Below are positions 20,995 to 54,365 of a DNA stretch of 64,000 nucleotides, one piece after another (within the stretch, counting starts at the first letter, position 1; the number at the start of each line of letters is the position of its first letter). The notes beneath the pieces are model-generated. The model was not told where the DNA came from and ran no database searches. It worked only from the letters and a program-made list of their open reading frames with translations. This DNA is from a phage, in sequence record PZ379075.1; one strand, written 5' to 3'. Both the position numbers and the translations under genes were made by a program.

Positions 20995-21176
20995 AGTGCT
21001 CTAAATGTGAAGGAACAAACCTTCATTTAAGTAACAAGGTTATCAGAGAGCTTGCTAAAGGCTCTCCAACCAAAGGGAAGAACAAACGATTTACTAACGT
21101 CAGGGTTTATACAGCAATCTGTAAAGACTGCTTAACTACTGAGTGTCATTACGAAGAAATTGGAGAGCGTAAATGA
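20979..21176 (+). CDS. small zinc-ribbon protein
   Basis: 65 aa; CSKCEG...CKDC. Confidence 0.4.
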   Translation: MDIVVKCSKCEGTNLHLSNKVIRELAKGSPTKGKNKRFTNVRVYTAICKDCLTTECHYEEIGERK

Positions 21177-21910
21177 GTCGTCGTCAATCACGGAAAGAAT
21201 CACGGAAAGACCTTCGTCGGGAAGCACTTGTTACTCGTAAAGGTAAGCGAGAGTATGAAGAGGTGGTTTTAGCAAAGCCTGTAGTCCCTCAGAACCAGTT
21301 TCAGTCTGAGCTACTCAATGCTATTAAGACTAAACAAGTTGTGTTCACAGACGCTCCTGCGGGCTGTGGTAAGACCTTTGTAATCACTTCCACAGTTATT
21401 GATGCACTGAAGAGCGGTAAGATTCAGAAGATCATTCTGAGTCGCCCTTCGGTTGGCATGGGCAACTCTCTTGGGTTACTTCCGGGAGGAATGCGTGAGA
21501 AGTTTGAACCATACCTGATGCCTATCATTGATGTTATTACTCAGCGATATGGTAAGGGATTCTATGAATGCCAAATCGGAAATGGTAACATTGAGTTTGT
21601 ACCTCTGGAATATCTCCGTGGTCGTTCTTTCAATGATGCTATTGTTATTGTTGATGAGTTCCAGAACACAACTAAGGATGAAGCCTTCTCCATCATGACT
21701 CGATTGGGAGAAACCTCTCAATTGTTCTGTATGGGTGATACAAACCAGCATGATATGCGTGGTCGCGAGAGTGGTCTAACTTGGGCTACTAACTTTATTG
21801 ATGAACACGATCTGTATGAGTTTGCTGAGATTGTAGATGGTGAATCAGATGATATTGTTCGTTCTGGTTTCTGTAAGGCGATTGTTAAAGCAATGGAAAA
21901 GAAAGCTTAA
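21173..21910 (+). CDS. phoH: PhoH-like ATPase
   Basis: Walker A in context FTDAPAGCGKTFV and overall PhoH-like layout; 245 aa. Confidence 0.7.
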   Translation: MSRRQSRKESRKDLRREALVTRKGKREYEEVVLAKPVVPQNQFQSELLNAIKTKQVVFTDAPAGCGKTFVITSTVIDALKSGKIQKIILSRPSVGMGNSLGLLPGGMREKFEPYLMPIIDVITQRYGKGFYECQIGNGNIEFVPLEYLRGRSFNDAIVIVDEFQNTTKDEAFSIMTRLGETSQLFCMGDTNQHDMRGRESGLTWATNFIDEHDLYEFAEIVDGESDDIVRSGFCKAIVKAMEKKA

Positions 21911-21919
21911 ACAGTAACT

Positions 21920-21946
21920 TATAATGTATACTCCTTAGTGTACACT
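21920..21946 (+). promoter_or_regulatory. promoter-like -10 element followed by a 10-bp perfect palindrome
   Basis: TATAAT at 21920-21925, then AGTGTACACT (perfect palindrome) at 21937-21946, then AAGGAG and ATG 21967. Confidence 0.3.
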
Positions 21947-21966
21947 GATATATTAAGGAGTTCTAA

Positions 21967-22281
21967 ATGGCAGATCATGTAGGAAAGAGAGATTATGCAC
22001 AAGAAAGACGTACCGCAATTGCCCGTGGTGAAACAGGCGTTGGGAGCAAGAGCGGAGATGCTCAGCGCCACCGTGCACGTCGCATCGTTGAAAAGCGCGA
22101 TGGAAAAGCTGCTGTCAGAGGTAAAGACGTTGGACACAAACGAGCTGTCAAGTCTGGAGGCTCTAATGCGTCAAGCAACTTACGTGTTGAATCAGTCAGC
22201 TCAAACCGTTCAAACGGCGGCAAAAGTGGTGATCGAGCTGGAAAAGCAGCTGGAGCACGCAAAGGAGCTTTAAGCTCATAA
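21967..22281 (+). CDS. hypothetical basic Gly/Lys/Arg-rich protein (frame ambiguous)
   Basis: 104-aa ORF with strong AAGGAG RBS; a second ORF (21995-22273, 92 aa, helical composition) is open in another frame, so the true coding frame is uncertain. Confidence 0.35.
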   Translation: MADHVGKRDYAQERRTAIARGETGVGSKSGDAQRHRARRIVEKRDGKAAVRGKDVGHKRAVKSGGSNASSNLRVESVSSNRSNGGKSGDRAGKAAGARKGALSS

Positions 22282-22291
22282 AGAGGTTATA

Positions 22292-22585
22292 GTGTCAGCA
22301 GAAACAAAAAGATGTACAATTCACACTTATTGTAAATTCTGTAAAGCAGAGGGTGTAAAAAGAGTTGCAACTTTAATGACCAAGTATTCTCCAAGTAGAG
22401 GATACAGGGACCACTATAAGCACTACTCTTGTAGTGATCACTCCTATCTATTAGAAGATACAGACCCGAATAGAACAAGGAGAGAGCATAACATTGACCT
22501 GAGAGCTACTCTCAAGGAAATGAAAAATAACTCTCGAAACAACCATTACACTGAAGCTGACTATCAAACTTGGCTTCGTCTCTAG
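22292..22585 (+). CDS. hypothetical Cys/His-rich protein
   Basis: 97-aa ORF, GTG start. Confidence 0.4.
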   Translation: MSAETKRCTIHTYCKFCKAEGVKRVATLMTKYSPSRGYRDHYKHYSCSDHSYLLEDTDPNRTRREHNIDLRATLKEMKNNSRNNHYTEADYQTWLRL

Positions 22586-22587
22586 AA

Positions 22588-22620
22588 CAAAGGCTGCCTA
22601 ATCAGGTGGCCTTTTCTTTT
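22588..22620 (+). terminator. intrinsic terminator
   Basis: aaaggctgcc-taatca-ggtggccttt (10-bp stem with two G-U pairs) followed by TCTTTTAT. Confidence 0.45.
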
Positions 22621-22654
22621 ATATAAACCAAATTAAACTTCTTAGGTAATAAAT

Positions 22655-22909
22655 ATGTCTATTGTAAAAATCGTAAATATCATTGATGTAACTCGTACCG
22701 GTAAAACTATCAGTTGGAAATTCACCAATAAGCATAGAGGTTCAGAGAACATCATTCGTTCTATGATTCAACAAAACCCAAATACAGCTCGCACTAACGT
22801 ACTCCTTCGAGGAGCTGATGGAAAATTTATCTCTTATAAGAATAAGAACGTAGAAAAATCTTTCCGTGTTGCAGTAGAAAATCTCATCCCATTCCCTAAA
22901 GGAGTTTAA
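22655..22909 (+). CDS. small hypothetical protein, paralog 1 of a pair
   Basis: 84 aa; shares TART.V.LR...GKFISY...PFP.G with the next ORF. Confidence 0.55.
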   Translation: MSIVKIVNIIDVTRTGKTISWKFTNKHRGSENIIRSMIQQNPNTARTNVLLRGADGKFISYKNKNVEKSFRVAVENLIPFPKGV

Positions 22910-22910
22910 T

Positions 22911-23195
22911 ATGAATAAGTTAGCTATGGTTCAAATTCGGGACACATACCCTAACCGCCCGGAGCAGAAACCGCGTACTTGGTCTTATCTGTTAGCTGAA
23001 AGTAAGACTATTGACAAATACGCTGTAGGGATTGATGCTATTCCAACTAGTATCACATTGCTCCCTCACAAAACAGCCAGAACCCATGTGATGTTACGTG
23101 ATAGCAAAGGTAAGTTTATCTCTTATCGTGATTCACGAATCAATAATGAGATTAAATCTGCTATGGAATTTTTGATGCCATTCCCAAGAGGTTGA
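22911..23195 (+). CDS. small hypothetical protein, paralog 2 of a pair
   Basis: 94 aa; same motif set. Confidence 0.55.
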   Translation: MNKLAMVQIRDTYPNRPEQKPRTWSYLLAESKTIDKYAVGIDAIPTSITLLPHKTARTHVMLRDSKGKFISYRDSRINNEIKSAMEFLMPFPRG

Positions 23196-23797: not shown

Positions 23798-25642
23798 GTG
23801 AGCAACCCGGACGCTCTTCCATTTTTGACAGAGATGACTGTCGCTGATATAATCTCTAAGCAAGCAAAGCACGGAGTGAGTTTCAACCGAAGAAATGCTC
23901 GGTGGTATGTTCACCTCCTTAAAGAGATTATTGTTAATATTGACAGAGAGTTGATTCCTCTCTTACCTAAGATGAGATTAGATGGCTCTACTTACATGAA
24001 GCCATTTAAGAAGTCTGGAGCTTTACAGAAGTGGCCTCAAGCCTATTGTGATAGGGTTGGGCTGAAAAGAGAAGATATTGGTGGAGCTTTCACCTGCGTC
24101 GAATACGTAGACTTTGACCCATCGAAAGATGCACGAGTTAAAGAAGCTCTTATGGATGAGGGTTTTCTTCCTCCAGAGTTTAACGTATCTAAGAAGCCTT
24201 GGAATACTTTCGAAATTAAGAAAGATATGCGAAAGTATGGAACATACCAAGCATGGTATACTGCTTGGATGCGAGGTAATGCTAAGCAAAAGCAGACAGC
24301 CGAGATGGTTGACGCTGATATTAAGAAGTTCTTAGAAAAGCATTTCAGGTTTAAAACTAAGAACTATATGAAGGCTTACGTATTTGGTTTGGGATTAAAC
24401 CCGAATCGCCGTAATCCTGTAACGTTTGATGAGATTAAGAAAGCACTAGCCACATCAAACAAGTGGCCTACAGCTCCTACAAACCTCGAGGAGACTCTTG
24501 AAGAAGGGTTAGGGGGTGAGCTAGGGAGTGTCGGAAGTTTGCTTAAGAGACGCGTTGTAGCGGCTCACAGGCTAGGTCTTATCAGTGGACTCATAGCAAA
24601 GGAACGCGAAGATGGTAAACTTTCGGCAGAAGCTAACAGCTGCGCTACGCCGACTTTTCGATTCAAACATCGTATCGTGGTTAATATTCCCTCCCGTGGT
24701 CTGTTTGGTCACGAGTGTCGCAGTTTGTTTGAGTCTGACTATAACTCAGACAGTGATCACTCTCGTCCTTTCGTTATTACTAACGTTGTTCCTGATGGTT
24801 GTTATATACGAAAAGGTACTAACGTAATTTACGAGAAAGGTAAGCCGGGGAAGAAAGATAAACCTATAGGTGCTTACAAATATTACATACCCGCTGGTAA
24901 AGAAGTATTCTTAGGGTATGATGGTTCTGGACTTGAACTTCGTATGCTCGCTCACTACCTCATTAAAGAGTGTAGGGATATGCTTGCTGAGGCAATTGAA
25001 GAGAACAACCCAGCTAAGAAAGCTCTGGCAGAACGTGGTTTAGCTTCTGCTATTATGTATCGTGATATTCTCCTTGAAGGTGATATCCACTCCCACAACC
25101 AGAAACTTGCTGGTCTTCCTACTCGTGACAACGCTAAGACGTTTATCTACGCATTCAACTATGGTGCTGGTGATGCTAAGCTTGGTTCAATTGTAGGTGG
25201 TGGGGCTGACGAAGGTTCAGTGATGCGAGCACGTTTCTTAGCAGAGAACCCATGTATTGCAATCCTCATTGATCGTATGACAGAGAAAGCTGCTCAAGGA
25301 TACTTGATTGGAGTTGATGGTCGTAAGATTACAATGAGACGGGATGCCACTGGTAAGGTTATGGTTCATAAAGCCCTTAACACACTCCTGCAATGTGCTG
25401 GTGCTGTTGTTATGAAATATGCTATGATGTTCCTTAACAAGTGGATTGAGAAAGATAAGGTTCGTTGTGCTAAGGTAATTGATATGCACGATGAAGGTCA
25501 ATTCTCAGTAAACCGTAATGATGTACAGAAACTCAAAGAGCACACCGAGCTTTGTGTTAAGAAAGCTGGCGAGTATCTGAATATGGAATGTCCTCTGGCA
25601 TCTGATTGTCAGATTGGACTTAACTGGATGCATACACACTAA
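23798..25642 (+). CDS. DNA polymerase, family A (polymerase domain only)
   Basis: Motif A DGSGLELR, motif B RDNAKTFIYAFNYGAGDAKLG, motif C VIDMHDEG; 614 aa; no exonuclease domain in this ORF. Confidence 0.8.
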   Translation: MSNPDALPFLTEMTVADIISKQAKHGVSFNRRNARWYVHLLKEIIVNIDRELIPLLPKMRLDGSTYMKPFKKSGALQKWPQAYCDRVGLKREDIGGAFTCVEYVDFDPSKDARVKEALMDEGFLPPEFNVSKKPWNTFEIKKDMRKYGTYQAWYTAWMRGNAKQKQTAEMVDADIKKFLEKHFRFKTKNYMKAYVFGLGLNPNRRNPVTFDEIKKALATSNKWPTAPTNLEETLEEGLGGELGSVGSLLKRRVVAAHRLGLISGLIAKEREDGKLSAEANSCATPTFRFKHRIVVNIPSRGLFGHECRSLFESDYNSDSDHSRPFVITNVVPDGCYIRKGTNVIYEKGKPGKKDKPIGAYKYYIPAGKEVFLGYDGSGLELRMLAHYLIKECRDMLAEAIEENNPAKKALAERGLASAIMYRDILLEGDIHSHNQKLAGLPTRDNAKTFIYAFNYGAGDAKLGSIVGGGADEGSVMRARFLAENPCIAILIDRMTEKAAQGYLIGVDGRKITMRRDATGKVMVHKALNTLLQCAGAVVMKYAMMFLNKWIEKDKVRCAKVIDMHDEGQFSVNRNDVQKLKEHTELCVKKAGEYLNMECPLASDCQIGLNWMHTH

Positions 25643-27942: not shown

Positions 27943-28358
27943 CTTATATCCTTTACTTTTTAGCTTTCTTAGGAATAATCTTTTTATCTATTATTCTTGA
28001 ATTTGGTTTAAGTAGGTTAGTTAATTATTTAGGTAATAAGTAATTAATATTCTTTTAAATAGAGAATCAAAGTCCCTAGGAGTCCCTACAACCTAAATCA
28101 AGGATTCCTTAATTCTCTATTTTTATCTCGCAGGTGGCTCCTGCCCTTCGGTACTTGCAAGGGATTCTGTGAATTGCCCAATATACAAGCCTGCAATAAC
28201 TTTATCAGCTATACAATATATACATTACTAGTGTGTTATATCTACTACCAAAGATACTTATATTATATAGTACTCTTATCGGTATAAGCGTAATGTATAC
28301 TATACATAACCGCTCAAAGAGAGCAACAATCTTTCAAATTAAATAAGGAAATTAAAAT
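27943..28358 (+). promoter_or_regulatory. AT-rich structured intergenic region (candidate promoter cluster or replication origin)
   Basis: About 415 bp without ORFs; 11-bp inverted repeat aaatagagaat (28057-28067) / attctctattt (28112-28122) flanking a tandem direct repeat agtccctagg/agtccctaca (28071-28090); further short hairpins; AT-rich TATAC-type repeats 28190-28320. Confidence 0.4.
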
Positions 28359-29658: not shown

Positions 29659-31144
<1,486 letters not shown>

Positions 31145-38083: not shown

Positions 38084-38150
38084 AACGTCTCCTTTTATAA
38101 ATAAAAATGTCCTACCCCCTATATACATTATAGAAGGCAGGACTTAGGTC

Positions 38151-53020: not shown

Positions 53021-53770
53021 TTATACACGAGAAGTACGAATACCATAAATATCAGGCAGGCTGCTCTGAAGTCGAGTCATGTTATTCGGAATTGCGATAG
53101 GTGAACCTGAGTACTCTTGTTTCTTATTCTGCTCTACCATTTCATCAAGGATAGCTTTTCCTAATGCTGACCATTTCTGAACACCATTATCATCTTGAAC
53201 AAACAAGCAAGCATGACGTAGTGTGAAGTACAGAAGAAGTTCTGGTGCGATAGTAAGAATAGCACTAGTGTCTGTATCTTCGTGGAATTCCGGTGGATCT
53301 GCATAATAACTGAGAATCACTGAGTTTTCTGCTGGAATCAAAGGGCTTCCATCATCAGGATAAACAGGAGTATCTGCTTCAATACTAGGGTAGAAAATGA
53401 AACGACTCCCGAAACGAGCAAAGTTAACAGGTTGGTTATTCCAGTGAGATGGATTAACTGTTCCATGCTGTCTACGATAGCTAATCTCTTCAGGAGATGT
53501 TACTTGGAAGATTGCACCATCTTTGGCTCTCATCATCCATTGAGCTTCTAAGTAATCAGGAGGAATATAAGCCACTCCATCTTTGATATCTAAATACACT
53601 TCTTTTTCCAGAGGAGGGATTCGTAAGTTACGATAAATCTCTTTCTCTGCAAAGTTAATAAAGTTTGGAATTTGATTAACAAATTCATCATCGTCCCTAT
53701 CTGCCCAGAGGGCCACGGCCTTCTTTAGCCACCCATAGGTATTGATGGGGTATTGAACTTCAGGCAACAT
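53021..53770 (-). CDS. hypothetical structural protein
   Basis: Start moved to the internal ATG at 53770, preceded by GGAGGT; the track start 53797 lacks an RBS. Confidence 0.5.
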   Translation of the reverse strand: MLPEVQYPINTYGWLKKAVALWADRDDDEFVNQIPNFINFAEKEIYRNLRIPPLEKEVYLDIKDGVAYIPPDYLEAQWMMRAKDGAIFQVTSPEEISYRRQHGTVNPSHWNNQPVNFARFGSRFIFYPSIEADTPVYPDDGSPLIPAENSVILSYYADPPEFHEDTDTSAILTIAPELLLYFTLRHACLFVQDDNGVQKWSALGKAILDEMVEQNKKQEYSGSPIAIPNNMTRLQSSLPDIYGIRTSRV

Positions 53771-54272
53771 AGGATACCTCCTTCCAGTTTGTGCCATTGA
53801 TTATTAGGCTTATTGTGCTTGAAGAGACTCCAAACTTCCTAGCTAAAGCTCTAGCTCCGAACTGTCTGTCCCTCGGTTTATAGTTCTCTAAACAGAAAAG
53901 AACTTGTTCTTTAGTAAGTTTGGAATTAGGATTATCCTCAAGATTTCTTGGTGTTGAGAGTTTTGTTTCATAAGCATGTACACAGTTTTCTTGTTGAGTA
54001 CACCACTCTAGATTCTCAATCCTGTTATCATCTTTTATTCCATTCTTATGGTTGACATAATCCTTCCCTTCTACCTTAGGAAGAAAAAGTTCAGCTATGA
54101 CCCTATGCTCTAAATATGATTTCTTTTTAAAAGTCACTTTACGATAACCTCTGTCGCCAATACACCCGGCACGTTGTCCTTTCTGCTTATTAAAGATGTT
54201 ACTCATAGACCAGAAAAGATGCCCTGTATTTGGATCATAGGTAAAAGCTTCTCTGAAATCAGGCATTGCCAT
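53760..54272 (-). CDS. HNH homing endonuclease
   Basis: YVNHKNGIKDDNRIENLEWCTQQENCVHA (HNH_3-type motif) plus C-terminal HTH-like region; AGGAGG RBS; free-standing between structural genes. Confidence 0.65.
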   Translation of the reverse strand: MAMPDFREAFTYDPNTGHLFWSMSNIFNKQKGQRAGCIGDRGYRKVTFKKKSYLEHRVIAELFLPKVEGKDYVNHKNGIKDDNRIENLEWCTQQENCVHAYETKLSTPRNLEDNPNSKLTKEQVLFCLENYKPRDRQFGARALARKFGVSSSTISLIINGTNWKEVSYVA

Positions 54273-54340
54273 AGTGTGTCCTCCTAGTTATGTATAGACA
54301 AAGAGAATACATTACATTTCTCCTTATAAGGGTCTTAAAC

Positions 54341-54365
54341 GAGAAAACCCCGCCCGAAGGCAGGG
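54341..54365 (-). terminator. intrinsic terminator on the - strand (UUCG loop)
   Basis: - strand RNA ccctgcc-UUCG-ggcgggg followed by UUUUCUCGUUU; directly after the stop of the Ig-like gene. Confidence 0.55.

Follow-up and report, generated by a model that had tools for sequence, protein, structure and literature searches.

The closest described system is that of phage phiEco32, in which promoters recognized by the phage sigma factor gp36 have been mapped for six genes (6, 13, 26, 40, 58, and 68). The consensus of these promoters is a single 9-bp element, tAATGTAtA, and transcription starts 6–8 nt 3′ of the element (PMC8948821), the centre of AATGTA being located at -11.5 (PMC12276001). P58 is a middle promoter whose use depends on phi32_gp36 (Pavlova et al., 2012, cited through PMC8948821, PMC4331800, and PMC4281155). 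The text and Table S3 of PMC8948821 list it for phiEco32, NJ01, ECBP2, KBNP1711, SU10, and 172-1; its exact start in phiEco32 is taken here from secondary statements.

A second type of control also resembles what is observed here, namely the placement of a promoter inside a hairpin, as reported for T4 genes e, soc, and 49, for I-TevI, I-TevII, I-TevIII, and segB, and for mobE of the Aeromonas phage Aeh1 (PMC3014915, PMC2988022). In these cases a stable hairpin sequesters the Shine-Dalgarno (SD) sequence on long read-through RNAs, and a phage-specific promoter gives transcripts without the 5′ arm. Both features would be shared by the present locus, the first by computation and the second by the predicted position of the start. 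Also, the controlled gene carries an HNH motif, as do mobE and I-TevIII. In contrast to the T4-type cases, the phage is here a podovirus of the Gordonclarkvirinae, the promoter is of the middle class and not late, and it is read by the gp36 sigma factor through a single 9-bp element instead of T4 gp55 with TATAAATA. Moreover, the controlled gene is a conserved syntenic core gene, and not evidently a mobile endonuclease.

The DNA analyzed (64,000 nucleotides, hereafter the window) belongs to a Kuravirus, that is, a phiEco32-like phage. The sigma factor gp36 (30121–30762) and the activator gp79 (11823–12068) were both found by tblastn with 100% identity to those of phiEco32. As compared with P58 of phiEco32, the 9-bp element TAATGTATA is the same, the sequence from ATAATGTATA to the start codon is identical, and the downstream gene is orthologous. 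The two loci differ in that phi32_59 lies between phoH and the promoter in phiEco32, whereas phoH abuts the promoter in the window, and in that the window has an additional ORF (22292–22585) ahead of the shared terminator. They also differ in that P58 of phiEco32 was mapped by experiment, whereas the copy in the window is known from its sequence. The features of the locus are the following:

21920–21925, + strand: TATAAT, a look-alike of a sigma-70 -10 element, overlapping the phage promoter element.
21922–21930, + strand: TAATGTATA, phi32_gp36 (phage sigma) promoter element, exact consensus match, very probably the orthologue of phiEco32 P58.
21930–21961, + strand: RNA hairpin, found by folding and repeat search.
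21930–21942, + strand: hairpin 5′ arm ACUCCUUAGUGUA, containing the anti-SD.
21937 (range 21936–21938), + strand: predicted transcription start (+1), placed by the published spacing.
21937–21946, no strand: 10-bp palindrome AGTGTACACT, positions +1 to +10 of the predicted mRNA, lower 5′ arm plus loop.
21943–21948, + strand: hairpin loop CACUGA.
21949–21961, + strand: hairpin 3′ arm UAUAUUAAGGAGU, containing the SD.
21954–21960, + strand: SD sequence TAAGGAG, 6 nt 5′ of the ATG.
21967–22281, + strand: almost certainly the gene, phi32_58 / SU10_056 orthologue, 104-aa basic protein with a degenerate HNH motif.
21995–22273, + strand: 92-codon ORF in the +1 frame, most likely non-coding (dN/dS, scope of homologues, internal stops).
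22048–22089, + strand: stretch of 42 nt (codons 28–41) without synonymous variation in 20 distinct Gordonclarkvirinae sequences.
22292–22585, + strand: accessory ORF, SU10_055 homologue, phrog_9585, between gene and terminator.
22589–22624, + strand: intrinsic terminator, 11-bp stem plus T-run, found by terminator scan.

An earlier note on this DNA had pointed to the TATAAT hexamer, the perfect 10-bp palindrome, the strong ribosome-binding site with ATG 21967 and the two long ORFs in different frames. All of these are present where it placed them, the ORFs coding for 104 and 92 aa. It read TATAAT as a promoter-like -10 element, and there is indeed a promoter at this place; it is not of the host type, and TATAAT owes its presence to an accidental overlap with the gp36 element. 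The exact 9-mer TAATGTATA and a 13-bp inverted repeat are the non-random features of this region. As the downstream ORF 21967–22281 is the orthologue of phi32_58, a gene with an experimentally mapped gp36 promoter, the promoter was already known, and we are highly confident, from this orthology, that TAATGTATA is a promoter of the P58 type. The host RNA polymerase core with the phage sigma factor gp36 would read the element at 21922–21930 and, according to the published spacing, would initiate at about 21937.

The predicted start falls within the 5′ arm (21930–21942) of a hairpin detected independently by repeat search and by RNA folding. The 13-bp stem has a folding energy of -14.7 kcal/mol (z = -4.46), and none of 200 shuffled sequences was equally stable; two G-U pairs lengthen it, at the RNA level only. 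The computed probability that the SD is unpaired was 0.00 for RNAs beginning at 21930 or further upstream, and 0.89–0.93 for those with 5′ ends at 21936–21938, so that the change from a masked to an accessible SD (0.00 to about 0.9) coincides exactly with the predicted start. With a probability of 0.00–0.01, the SD was the most strongly masked among 79 gene starts. Because the predicted start lies inside the 5′ arm, read-through RNA would mask the SD and promoter-initiated RNA would expose it. The genes 5′ of the site are on the same strand and abut it in the ORF listing, and the terminator scan gave no convincing terminator between phoH and the hairpin. We propose that the anti-SD ACUCCUUA pairs with the SD stretch UAAGGAGU in the hairpin 21930–21961, that read-through RNAs coming from phoH or upstream promoters would carry the complete hairpin and be poorly translated into the product of the gene, and that RNAs initiated at P58, having no anti-SD, would be translated. 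The structure and its geometry are computed and the effect is deduced from the parallel with T4 e, soc, 49, and I-TevI, as well as Aeh1 mobE; on this basis the hairpin is rather probably a translational gate. If so, P58 fused to an SD-masking hairpin would extend the promoter-inside-hairpin gate of T4 to another phage family with its own sigma factor.

Comparison among relatives gave further indications. The stem was 100% paired in 9 distinct leaders, the sole stem variant being a change of A-U to G-U. Two leader variants were seen, a loop change in NJ01 and the pair kept as G-U in IMGVR_a and Bas87. As to covariation, 12 of the 13 pairs never vary in alignable leaders, an invariant leader that makes this a test without power. 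The invariant block corresponds to the promoter element plus the hairpin, from ATAATGTATA to 1–2 nt past the 3′ arm, and it was compared among phages with 33–47% coding synonymous-site difference. Diverged relatives rebuild the same anti-SD/SD logic with other sequences. For example, L039 has a TAATGTAAT element followed by CCUUAUAU, which pairs with AUAUAAGG, and its SD accessibility rises from 0.33 to 0.75–0.85; in L041 and L043, ACTCCTT is found upstream of a TATTGTATA element and the accessibility rises from 0.03–0.13 to 0.47. The promoter elements of L039 and L041 are consensus-like only, and the hairpin of L039 is weak by itself (z = -1.06). The control appears dispensable in some phages, since ES17, SU7, Bas86, and L046, in which HNH homing-endonuclease ORFs lie directly upstream, have neither promoter nor hairpin and leave the SD exposed (0.66–0.82). 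A gate at all gp36 promoters was also considered and was rejected, as the hairpin was not seen at the P68, P40, and P26 orthologues. Against the gate, it can be argued that P68 is also a middle promoter, and that a need to silence its read-through is not evident.

Other readings of the leader have to be considered together with the gate. The host sigma-70 holoenzyme could use TATAAT early in infection, which would be compatible with the use of the gp36 promoter; the -10 hexamer is perfect, and in the SU10 genome paper a sigma-70 promoter whose -35 is poor was predicted in the CDS56/57 spacer and such dual use was proposed. We consider this unlikely, as a -35 placed 17 bp away would match at about 2 of its 6 positions, there is no TG of an extended -10, the sigma-70 promoter scan does not list the site, and several phages, among them phiEco32, Paul, ECBP2, and EP335, have CATAAT, so that conservation does not extend to the first T. 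Furthermore, gp79 shuts off sigma-70 transcription (PMC8948821, PMC12276001), and a start about 7 nt past TATAAT (about 21932–21934) would retain much of the anti-SD, with an SD accessibility of 0.19–0.50. The hairpin may also have another job, as an element of RNA processing or stability or as a pause site for read-through transcription. It is stable and conserved, intergenic hairpins of phages are often processing or stability signals, such hairpins can also halt reverse transcriptase, an effect noted for phage 7-11, and the P26 orthologue of the window sits within a terminator hairpin. Nevertheless, there is no U-tract past the stem and the terminator scan does not report this hairpin, a 13-bp stem is short for RNase III, and the 3′ arm coincides exactly with the SD while the predicted start is at the 5′ arm, a geometry specific to gating. 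Also, what the diverged leaders preserve is the anti-SD/SD pairing and not the hairpin sequence. This other function thus seems improbable to us.

The earlier note had further suggested that the palindrome is an operator for a DNA-binding regulator. In such a case, AGTGTACACT or the larger inverted repeat would be occupied by a dimeric regulator that represses P58 from positions +1 to +10, and initiation would be blocked by a protein bound there. Candidate regulators are the product of the gene itself, after the example of I-TevI, and a different HTH protein of the phage. The T4 intron endonucleases do repress themselves via operators overlapping their own promoters (PMC2988022), the product of the gene is small, basic, and probably DNA-binding, and the leader is invariant. 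However, the palindrome is not statistically special and is not rarer than chance, as 40 perfect 10-bp palindromes were counted in the window versus 61 ± 7 in Markov simulations. A search of the 64 kb that tolerated one mismatch gave no second copy, and it was not found 3′ of the other gp36 promoters, so that it is not repeated at co-regulated promoters. It is broken in NJ01 (AGTGTATACT) and missing in L039, and no link between it and the HTH protein encoded at 600–911 was found. Moreover, without G-U pairs the complementarity falls short of 13 bp, and the variant in which A is changed to G preserves the RNA pair but not the DNA symmetry. The palindrome would thus be better read as part of the RNA hairpin, that is, the portion of the leader at +1 to +10, and an operator has in our opinion a small chance of being the right explanation. 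What speaks in favor of it is the 8-bp core GTGTACAC, which recurs in the diverged leaders of L041 and L043, kept beside the promoter-like element while the flanks changed; this recurrence is the reason why a role as operator is given that small chance, and the hairpin model alone does not account for the conservation of GTGTACAC in this second leader type. As a separate observation, the HTH of the 600–911 ORF corresponds to Sigma70_r4_2 (30.4 bits).

Concerning the coding sequence, the note had left open whether the two frames are overprinted or only one is real, and the second view is borne out. The product of frame 1 is 100% identical to phi32_58 over residues 1–83 and the locus is syntenic. 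Homologues of frame 1 were found by tblastn in 254 phage records, it is the only one of the two frames with a PHROG match, and all annotators chose it. The codon-position pattern is 26/14/56, and dN/dS was 0.14 for frame 1, 1.76 for frame 2, and 3.04 for the unused frame 3. It is thus nearly certain, from these comparisons of sequences, that frame 1 is the gene. Public records label it in various ways, as "Cas8 protein," "PhoH-like," or "cytidyltransferase."

The 104-aa protein is basic and conserved and carries a degenerate HNH (beta-beta-alpha-Me) nuclease motif, from which its biochemical activity may be deduced. Residues H57, N71, and N80, invariant in 42 family members, fall in register with the catalytic His, the structural Asn, and the metal-binding Asn/His. 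Profile matches were weak: no Pfam HNH match was obtained for the window protein at E ≤ 1, the PHROG HNH families gave E = 0.07–0.15, so that no HNH profile reached significance, and sub-threshold Pfam matches were seen in relatives (PF01844 in 33 of 42, best 5e-4; PF13392 in 13 of 42, best 7.5e-5). The family profile had no match at E ≤ 10 among PDB sequences, and Foldseek against the PDB gave nothing below E = 1. Small phage HNH nucleases and related domains such as GVE2 HNH (PDB 5h0o), Geobacter Gme HNH (4h9d), and the McrA nuclease domain (6ghc) are the natural terms of comparison. Unlike these, the protein of the window has no cysteine and hence no zinc-binding CxxC pair, stays below every Pfam HNH threshold, has no match in the PDB at the sequence level, and carries a Gly where the family has an Asp before the catalytic His. 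Its highly conserved N-terminal sequence RGETGxGSxSGDAxRHRARR has no known counterpart. The occurrence, once more, of an HNH motif in a gene that would be under such control suggests a convergent tight control of potentially harmful nucleases.

Long same-strand +1 frames embedded in phage genes are real genes in some cases, such as lambda Rz1 inside Rz or the overlapping genes of phiX174. The ORF 21995–22273 shares with them its location wholly within a gene, its own ATG, and a purine-rich stretch 5′ of it. It differs in that the frame shows no purifying selection and is interrupted in several lineages, and in that its homologues are confined to close relatives. Another explanation is provided by the composition of frame 1. 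Its fraction of hydrophobic (xTx) codons is 0.125, the lowest of 88 genes (median 0.28), and only 9 interior codons are able to create a +1 stop. Frame 2 is open because the gene has the fewest xTx codons, which are the only ones that make +1 stops; synonymous recoding of frame 1 of the window yields such an ORF with P of about 0.07. The 92-codon ORF would therefore most likely be a by-product of this unusual amino-acid composition.

If instead 21995–22273 were translated into a real 92-aa helical protein, the locus would be dual-coding, and several observations go in this direction. In all 20 distinct Gordonclarkvirinae sequences the ORF is uninterrupted and keeps its ATG and its stop position; it is open as well in 8 metagenomic loci (L035, L038, L041, L042, L043, L045, L046, L047), some of them at synonymous saturation versus the window (pS 0.70), which makes more open lineages than a naive null of independent lineages predicts. 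The recoding null gave P = 0.04–0.19 per sequence, no interior Val or Ile codon has A or G as its third base, the purine-rich stretch 5′ of the ATG is AGGAAAGAGAG, and pairwise BLOSUM tests gave P < 0.05 in 2 of 6 cases. The pS of the gene is also lower than that of neighbouring genes (about 0.65 times that of phoH), with the 14-codon stretch devoid of synonymous change at 22048–22089. Outside this stretch 45–70% of the degenerate codons vary, distant homologues vary freely within it, and no special RNA fold was found there (22036–22100, z = -0.18).

Against dual coding, the dN/dS of frame 2 resembles that of the unused frame 3, no Pfam or PHROG family matches it, and its homologues (99 phage records by tblastn) are of Kuravirus type only. 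Its identity drops to 66–71% where frame 1 holds 88–94%, with 70.7% versus 94% in SU7; conservation is thus restricted to one frame in homologues, the very result that the note had named as refuting overprinting. The similarity of frame 2 is generally that expected from a random placement of the synonymous changes of frame 1, and the probability of being stop-free given an open relative is 0.2–0.8 per pair. Internal stops, 4 of them in L039 and in L044, interrupt the frame in these loci and also in Cronobacter A24, SeKF_80, and PhCF1.2, which makes at least 5 lineages in all. Among 88 candidate genes in the window, none has a more extreme +1 ORF (0.88 of gene length), and this gene is the compositional extreme of the window, which implies a large look-elsewhere effect. 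We therefore regard the translation of frame 2 as very unlikely, and just as hard to credit is a genuine fast-evolving overprinted gene, selected to stay open in most lineages and lost in a few. If it were nevertheless true, the locus would be a dual-coding HNH-like one, in which the P58/hairpin switch releases both products together. The attribution of the gene to frame 1, with a compositional reason for the second frame, is useful for annotation.

Literature and databases already contain both the promoter and the gene, and known biology explains most of what is observed here. The explanation that fits best, held with moderate confidence, is that the locus forms a compact and portable cassette around a middle gene of a phiEco32-like phage, self-contained and comprising a 9-bp promoter, a gate, a gene, and a terminator. 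Such a cassette could be exploited, or would have to be respected, in engineering Kuravirus phages, a group employed in studies of therapy. The Rfam scan of 21700–22700 returned nothing but sub-threshold Phe_leader noise, at the downstream terminator. This terminator (22589–22624) probably ends the P58 transcription unit; its homologue follows gene 58 directly in phiEco32, and comes after one extra ORF in the window, the accessory ORF, which is absent in phiEco32 and NJ01.

By blastn against phage genomes, the window was placed in Kuravirus/Gordonclarkvirinae, among the phiEco32-like podoviruses with elongated heads, at 98-99.9% identity to FS2B, MN03 and SU10. The TATAAT, the palindrome, the Shine-Dalgarno sequence (SD), the ATG and the two overlapping ORFs described in the earlier note were all found, with a PhoH-like gene upstream and small ORFs and a family-A DNA polymerase downstream. 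In phiEco32, a terminator also lies directly 3' of gene 58.

Features of the locus and of the gp36 system in the window
11823-12068, regulator gp79, 100% identical to the phiEco32 protein
17802, gp36-type element AAATGTATA, before the gene-68 orthologue
21173-21910, PhoH-like gene, upstream (Pfam PhoH, 1.7e-56)
21920-21925 (+), TATAAT
21930-21942 (+), hairpin 5' arm ACUCCUUAGUGUA (folding), holding the exact SD complement
21937-21946, 10-bp palindrome AGTGTACACT
21949-21961 (+), hairpin 3' arm UAUAUUAAGGAGU (folding), holding the SD
21954-21960 (+), SD, TAAGGAG
21967 (+), start codon ATG
21967-22281 (+), frame-1 ORF, 104 aa
21995-22273 (+), frame-2 ORF, 92 aa, same strand, +1 frame
22589-22624, terminator after the transcription unit
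28291 (+), copy of the gp36-type element, before the gene 40 orthologue
30121-30762, phage sigma factor gp36, 100% identical to the phiEco32 protein
38122-38130 (-), copy of the gp36-type element, TAATGTATA, before the gene 26 orthologue (P26-type)
62322 (-), gp36-type element TAATGTAGA, matching P6

The two adjacent small ORFs 22655-22906 and 22911-23192 are mutual paralogues, and both match phi32_57 (67% and 32% identity, respectively).

Frame 1 is almost certainly the only real frame. It matched phrog_4590 (E 7e-41), while profile searches of Pfam and PHROG gave no family match for frame 2, and an ORF of 315-318 nt is called in this frame in all annotated relatives (SU10_056, NJ01_067, phi32_58). 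By tblastn, frame 1 was detected in 254 phage records, with hosts including Escherichia, Pseudomonas (LUZ24-like), Aeromonas, Proteus, Salmonella, Cronobacter and Vibrio, and frame 2 in 99 records, Kuravirus-type without exception. Frame 2 also decays faster (94% identity for frame 1 vs 70.7% for frame 2 in SU7, 88% vs 66% in KarlSchell). Among 20 distinct Gordonclarkvirinae sequences, codon positions 1, 2 and 3 of frame 1 presented 26, 14 and 56 variable columns, and pooled dN/dS came to 0.14 in frame 1, against 1.76 in frame 2 and 3.04 in frame 3, which is unused. Random re-placement of the observed frame-1 synonymous changes reproduced the similarity of the frame-2 proteins between phages.

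The length and openness of frame 2 are most likely due to amino-acid composition. A +1 stop arises only where A or G comes after an xTA or xTG codon, and the fraction of xTx (hydrophobic) codons in the gene is 0.125, which ranks lowest among the window's 88 candidate genes (median 0.28); frame 2 is the longest relative +1 ORF of the same set. Only 9 interior frame-1 codons are able to make a +1 stop, and about 7% of synonymous recodings of frame 1 kept a +1 ORF of at least 92 codons. Frame 2 is open in 20/20 Gordonclarkvirinae sequences and in 8 metagenomic relatives (L035, L038, L041, L042, L043, L045, L046, L047), is interrupted by 4 internal stops in the diverged relative L039 and likewise in L044, and is also broken in Cronobacter A24, SeKF_80 and PhCF1.2. 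The chance of its remaining stop-free given an open relative was 0.2-0.8 per comparison; the number of lineages with an open frame exceeds what a naive model of independent lineages would give. Overprinting, in which frame 2 would be a second protein-coding gene, retains a little support from interior Val and Ile codons without purine ending and from a synonymous difference (pS) of the gene about 0.65 times that of phoH; with conservation in dN/dS, homologue range and phrog_4590 confined to frame 1, we consider it highly improbable, and of the two options in the earlier note it is the single real frame that stands. Codons 28-41 (22048-22089, 42 nt), which include the palindrome CGTGCACG, showed zero synonymous variation in the 20 sequences, in contrast to 45-70% of variable degenerate codons elsewhere in the gene. 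The RNA fold of this stretch is unremarkable and accounts for no synonymous constraint, and distant homologues vary freely at these codons.

The earlier note had also read TATAAT as promoter-like. A promoter is indeed present, but it is not of the host type. TATAAT overlaps TAATGTATA at 21922-21930, of which only 4 exact copies exist in the whole window, and on sequence grounds this is the known gp36-type promoter, orthologous to P58, a phiEco32 middle promoter. The motif tAATGTAtA is the sole element of the middle and late promoters in phiEco32 (PMC8948821), with transcription starting 6-8 nt 3' of it, and six promoters have been identified experimentally, before genes 6, 13, 26, 40, 58 and 68 (PMC8948821; PMC4331800). 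Table S3 of the former study gives TAATGTATA for P58 of phiEco32, P67 of NJ01, P54 of ECBP2 and P56 of SU10 and KBNP1711 (PMC8948821), and these promoters all belong to orthologues of the frame-1 ORF. A promoter with a poor -35 was predicted in the CDS56/CDS57 spacer of SU10 (SU10 genome paper). AATGTA is centred at -11.5 in a 2025 cryo-EM study, which places the predicted +1 at 21937. The site makes a poor sigma-70 promoter: TATAAT lacks both a -35 and a TG and went unreported in the sigma-70 scan, and its first T is unconserved, many relatives having CATAAT. A perfect sigma-70 consensus promoter (TTGACA/17 bp/TATAAT, upstream TG, 12/12 matches) occurs at 23825-23853 (+), falling in the first 55 nt of ORF 23798-25642 (DNA polymerase).

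Other copies of the element present features of their own. At 38109-38143 (-), a terminator-like hairpin with a 15-bp stem and a T-run behind it (GTCCTGCCTTCTATAATGTATATAGGGGGTAGGAC ATTTTTATTT) carries the P26-type element at its apex, so that a terminator and the next promoter overlap. In the region 28210-28309, the element is present exactly at 28291 (+) and 28219 (-), and nearly so at 28210 (-) and 28301 (-); the 28291 copy and its own inverted copy form TAATGTATA-C-TATACATAA, and no ORF lies within 140 nt downstream of the minus-strand copy at 28219.

Folding of the leader gave a hairpin of 13 pairs, two of them G-U, with a CACUGA loop (-14.7 kcal/mol, z -4.46; 0/200 shuffles as stable), and a repeat finder returned identical arms. 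The computed probability that the SD is unpaired was 0.00 for an RNA 5' end at 21930 or upstream, 0.19 at 21932, 0.50 at 21934, and 0.89-0.93 at the predicted start, 21936-21938. In read-through context, this SD is the most masked among 79 gene starts of the window (0.012 vs median 0.54). The switch is absent at the P68, P40 and P26 orthologues. A similar, weaker one was found at 54262-54345, where TAATGTATT at 54306 (-) precedes ORF 53760-54272 (SD accessibility 0.10 in read-through RNA vs 0.77 from the predicted start; fold z only -0.75).

Orthology and computation thus establish a gp36-type promoter, a computed SD-masking hairpin, a predicted start inside the 5' arm and a terminator after the unit. 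With this arrangement, the gene would be poorly translated from read-through RNAs coming from phoH, P68 or early promoters, and would be translated from P58-initiated RNAs. The same arrangement is established for T4 e, soc and 49, for I-TevI/II/III, segB and Aeh1 mobE, the last being an HNH homing endonuclease (PMC3014915; PMC2988022). No description of it in phiEco32-like phages was found in the part of the literature searched. Promoter and gene have both been described before; the hairpin joined to a gp36 promoter is, as far as we have checked, an undescribed example of a well-known regulatory kind.

Among promoter-bearing phages, the stretch that runs from ATAATGTATA to AAGGAGTT stays invariant, also in those with 33-47% difference at coding synonymous sites and in those with another upstream gene, and variation returns 1-2 nt past the 3' arm. 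The only two variants are a loop change (NJ01) and an A-to-G change that leaves G-U in place of A-U (IMGVR_a, Bas87), hence no covariation in alignable leaders. In L039 (77% protein identity, pS 0.77), the element TAATGTAAT is followed by CCUUAUAU, which pairs with AUAUAAGG; relative to the predicted start, the anti-SD CCUU occupies -5 to -2, and the SD goes from an accessibility of 0.33 to one of 0.75-0.85, the hairpin alone being weak (z -1.06). In L041 and L043, also diverged metagenomic relatives (73-76% identity), ACTCCTT upstream of the TATTGTATA element pairs with AAGGAGT via a 7-11-bp outer stem (accessibility 0.03-0.13 to 0.47). These cases, individually weak, suggest that distant relatives rebuild the same SD-masking logic with other sequences. 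Full or partial SD masking, from unrelated sequences, was also seen in homologues of the gene that lie in unrelated genomic contexts (P unpaired 0.03 in Salmonella phage SeKF_80, L032, 417-488; 0.13-0.22 in the L035, L042 and L045 leaders), and restrained translation may be a trait of the gene family.

In ES17 (L034, 690-1581), SU7 (L020), Bas86 (L026) and L046, an HNH homing-endonuclease ORF directly upstream replaces P58 and the hairpin and the SD is exposed; this control is therefore not indispensable. The gene flanks are a hot spot for such ORFs, which also overlap the gene 3' end in Bas89 (L022, 709-1043), E20-1 (L028, 723-1127) and L039 (1030-1521).

An operator at the palindrome, the other proposal of the earlier note, is improbable. 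Such palindromes are no rarity in the window (40 perfect 10-bp ones observed vs 61 +/- 7 expected), no second copy of AGTGTACACT was found there, and a C-to-T change breaks it in NJ01. In L041 and L043, where the rest of the leader has changed, the 8-bp core GTGTACAC is nevertheless kept beside the promoter-like element, which leaves some likelihood to a sequence-specific role, such as operator or start-site context.

The gene product appears to be an HNH-like small basic protein, putative as to activity. Across 42 aligned members, invariant positions are R20-G-E-T23, S29, D31, R34-H35, A37-R-R39, H57, G64, N71-L72, N80 and G84-G85. H57...N71...N80 shows HNH-motif spacing, 33/42 relatives give sub-threshold Pfam HNH matches (best 5e-4) and the AF2 model (pLDDT 71) has a beta-beta-alpha unit over residues 53-82, while Foldseek with this model gave no significant match and the product is without cysteines. 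The window protein itself has no Pfam HNH match, and the residue before the His is Gly vs Asp in the family. CDS56 is among the few genes common to all five C3-morphotype phages (SU10 genome paper), and therefore acts as a core gene, not an obviously mobile one. In LUZ24-like (Bruynoghevirus-type) Pseudomonas phages, the tblastn match overlaps two features, one for a hypothetical protein (gp26 in LUZ24) and the ORF annotated as DNA polymerase part I or exonuclease subunit, which places the homologue at the boundary of the latter. In four public records (PQ863256.1, PQ863255.1, OR757434.1, OR863363.1), orthologues are annotated implausibly as "Cas8 protein", "PhoH-like phosphate starvation-inducible" or "cytidyltransferase"; a weak resemblance to Cas8-HNH fusions is the probable source of the first of these names.
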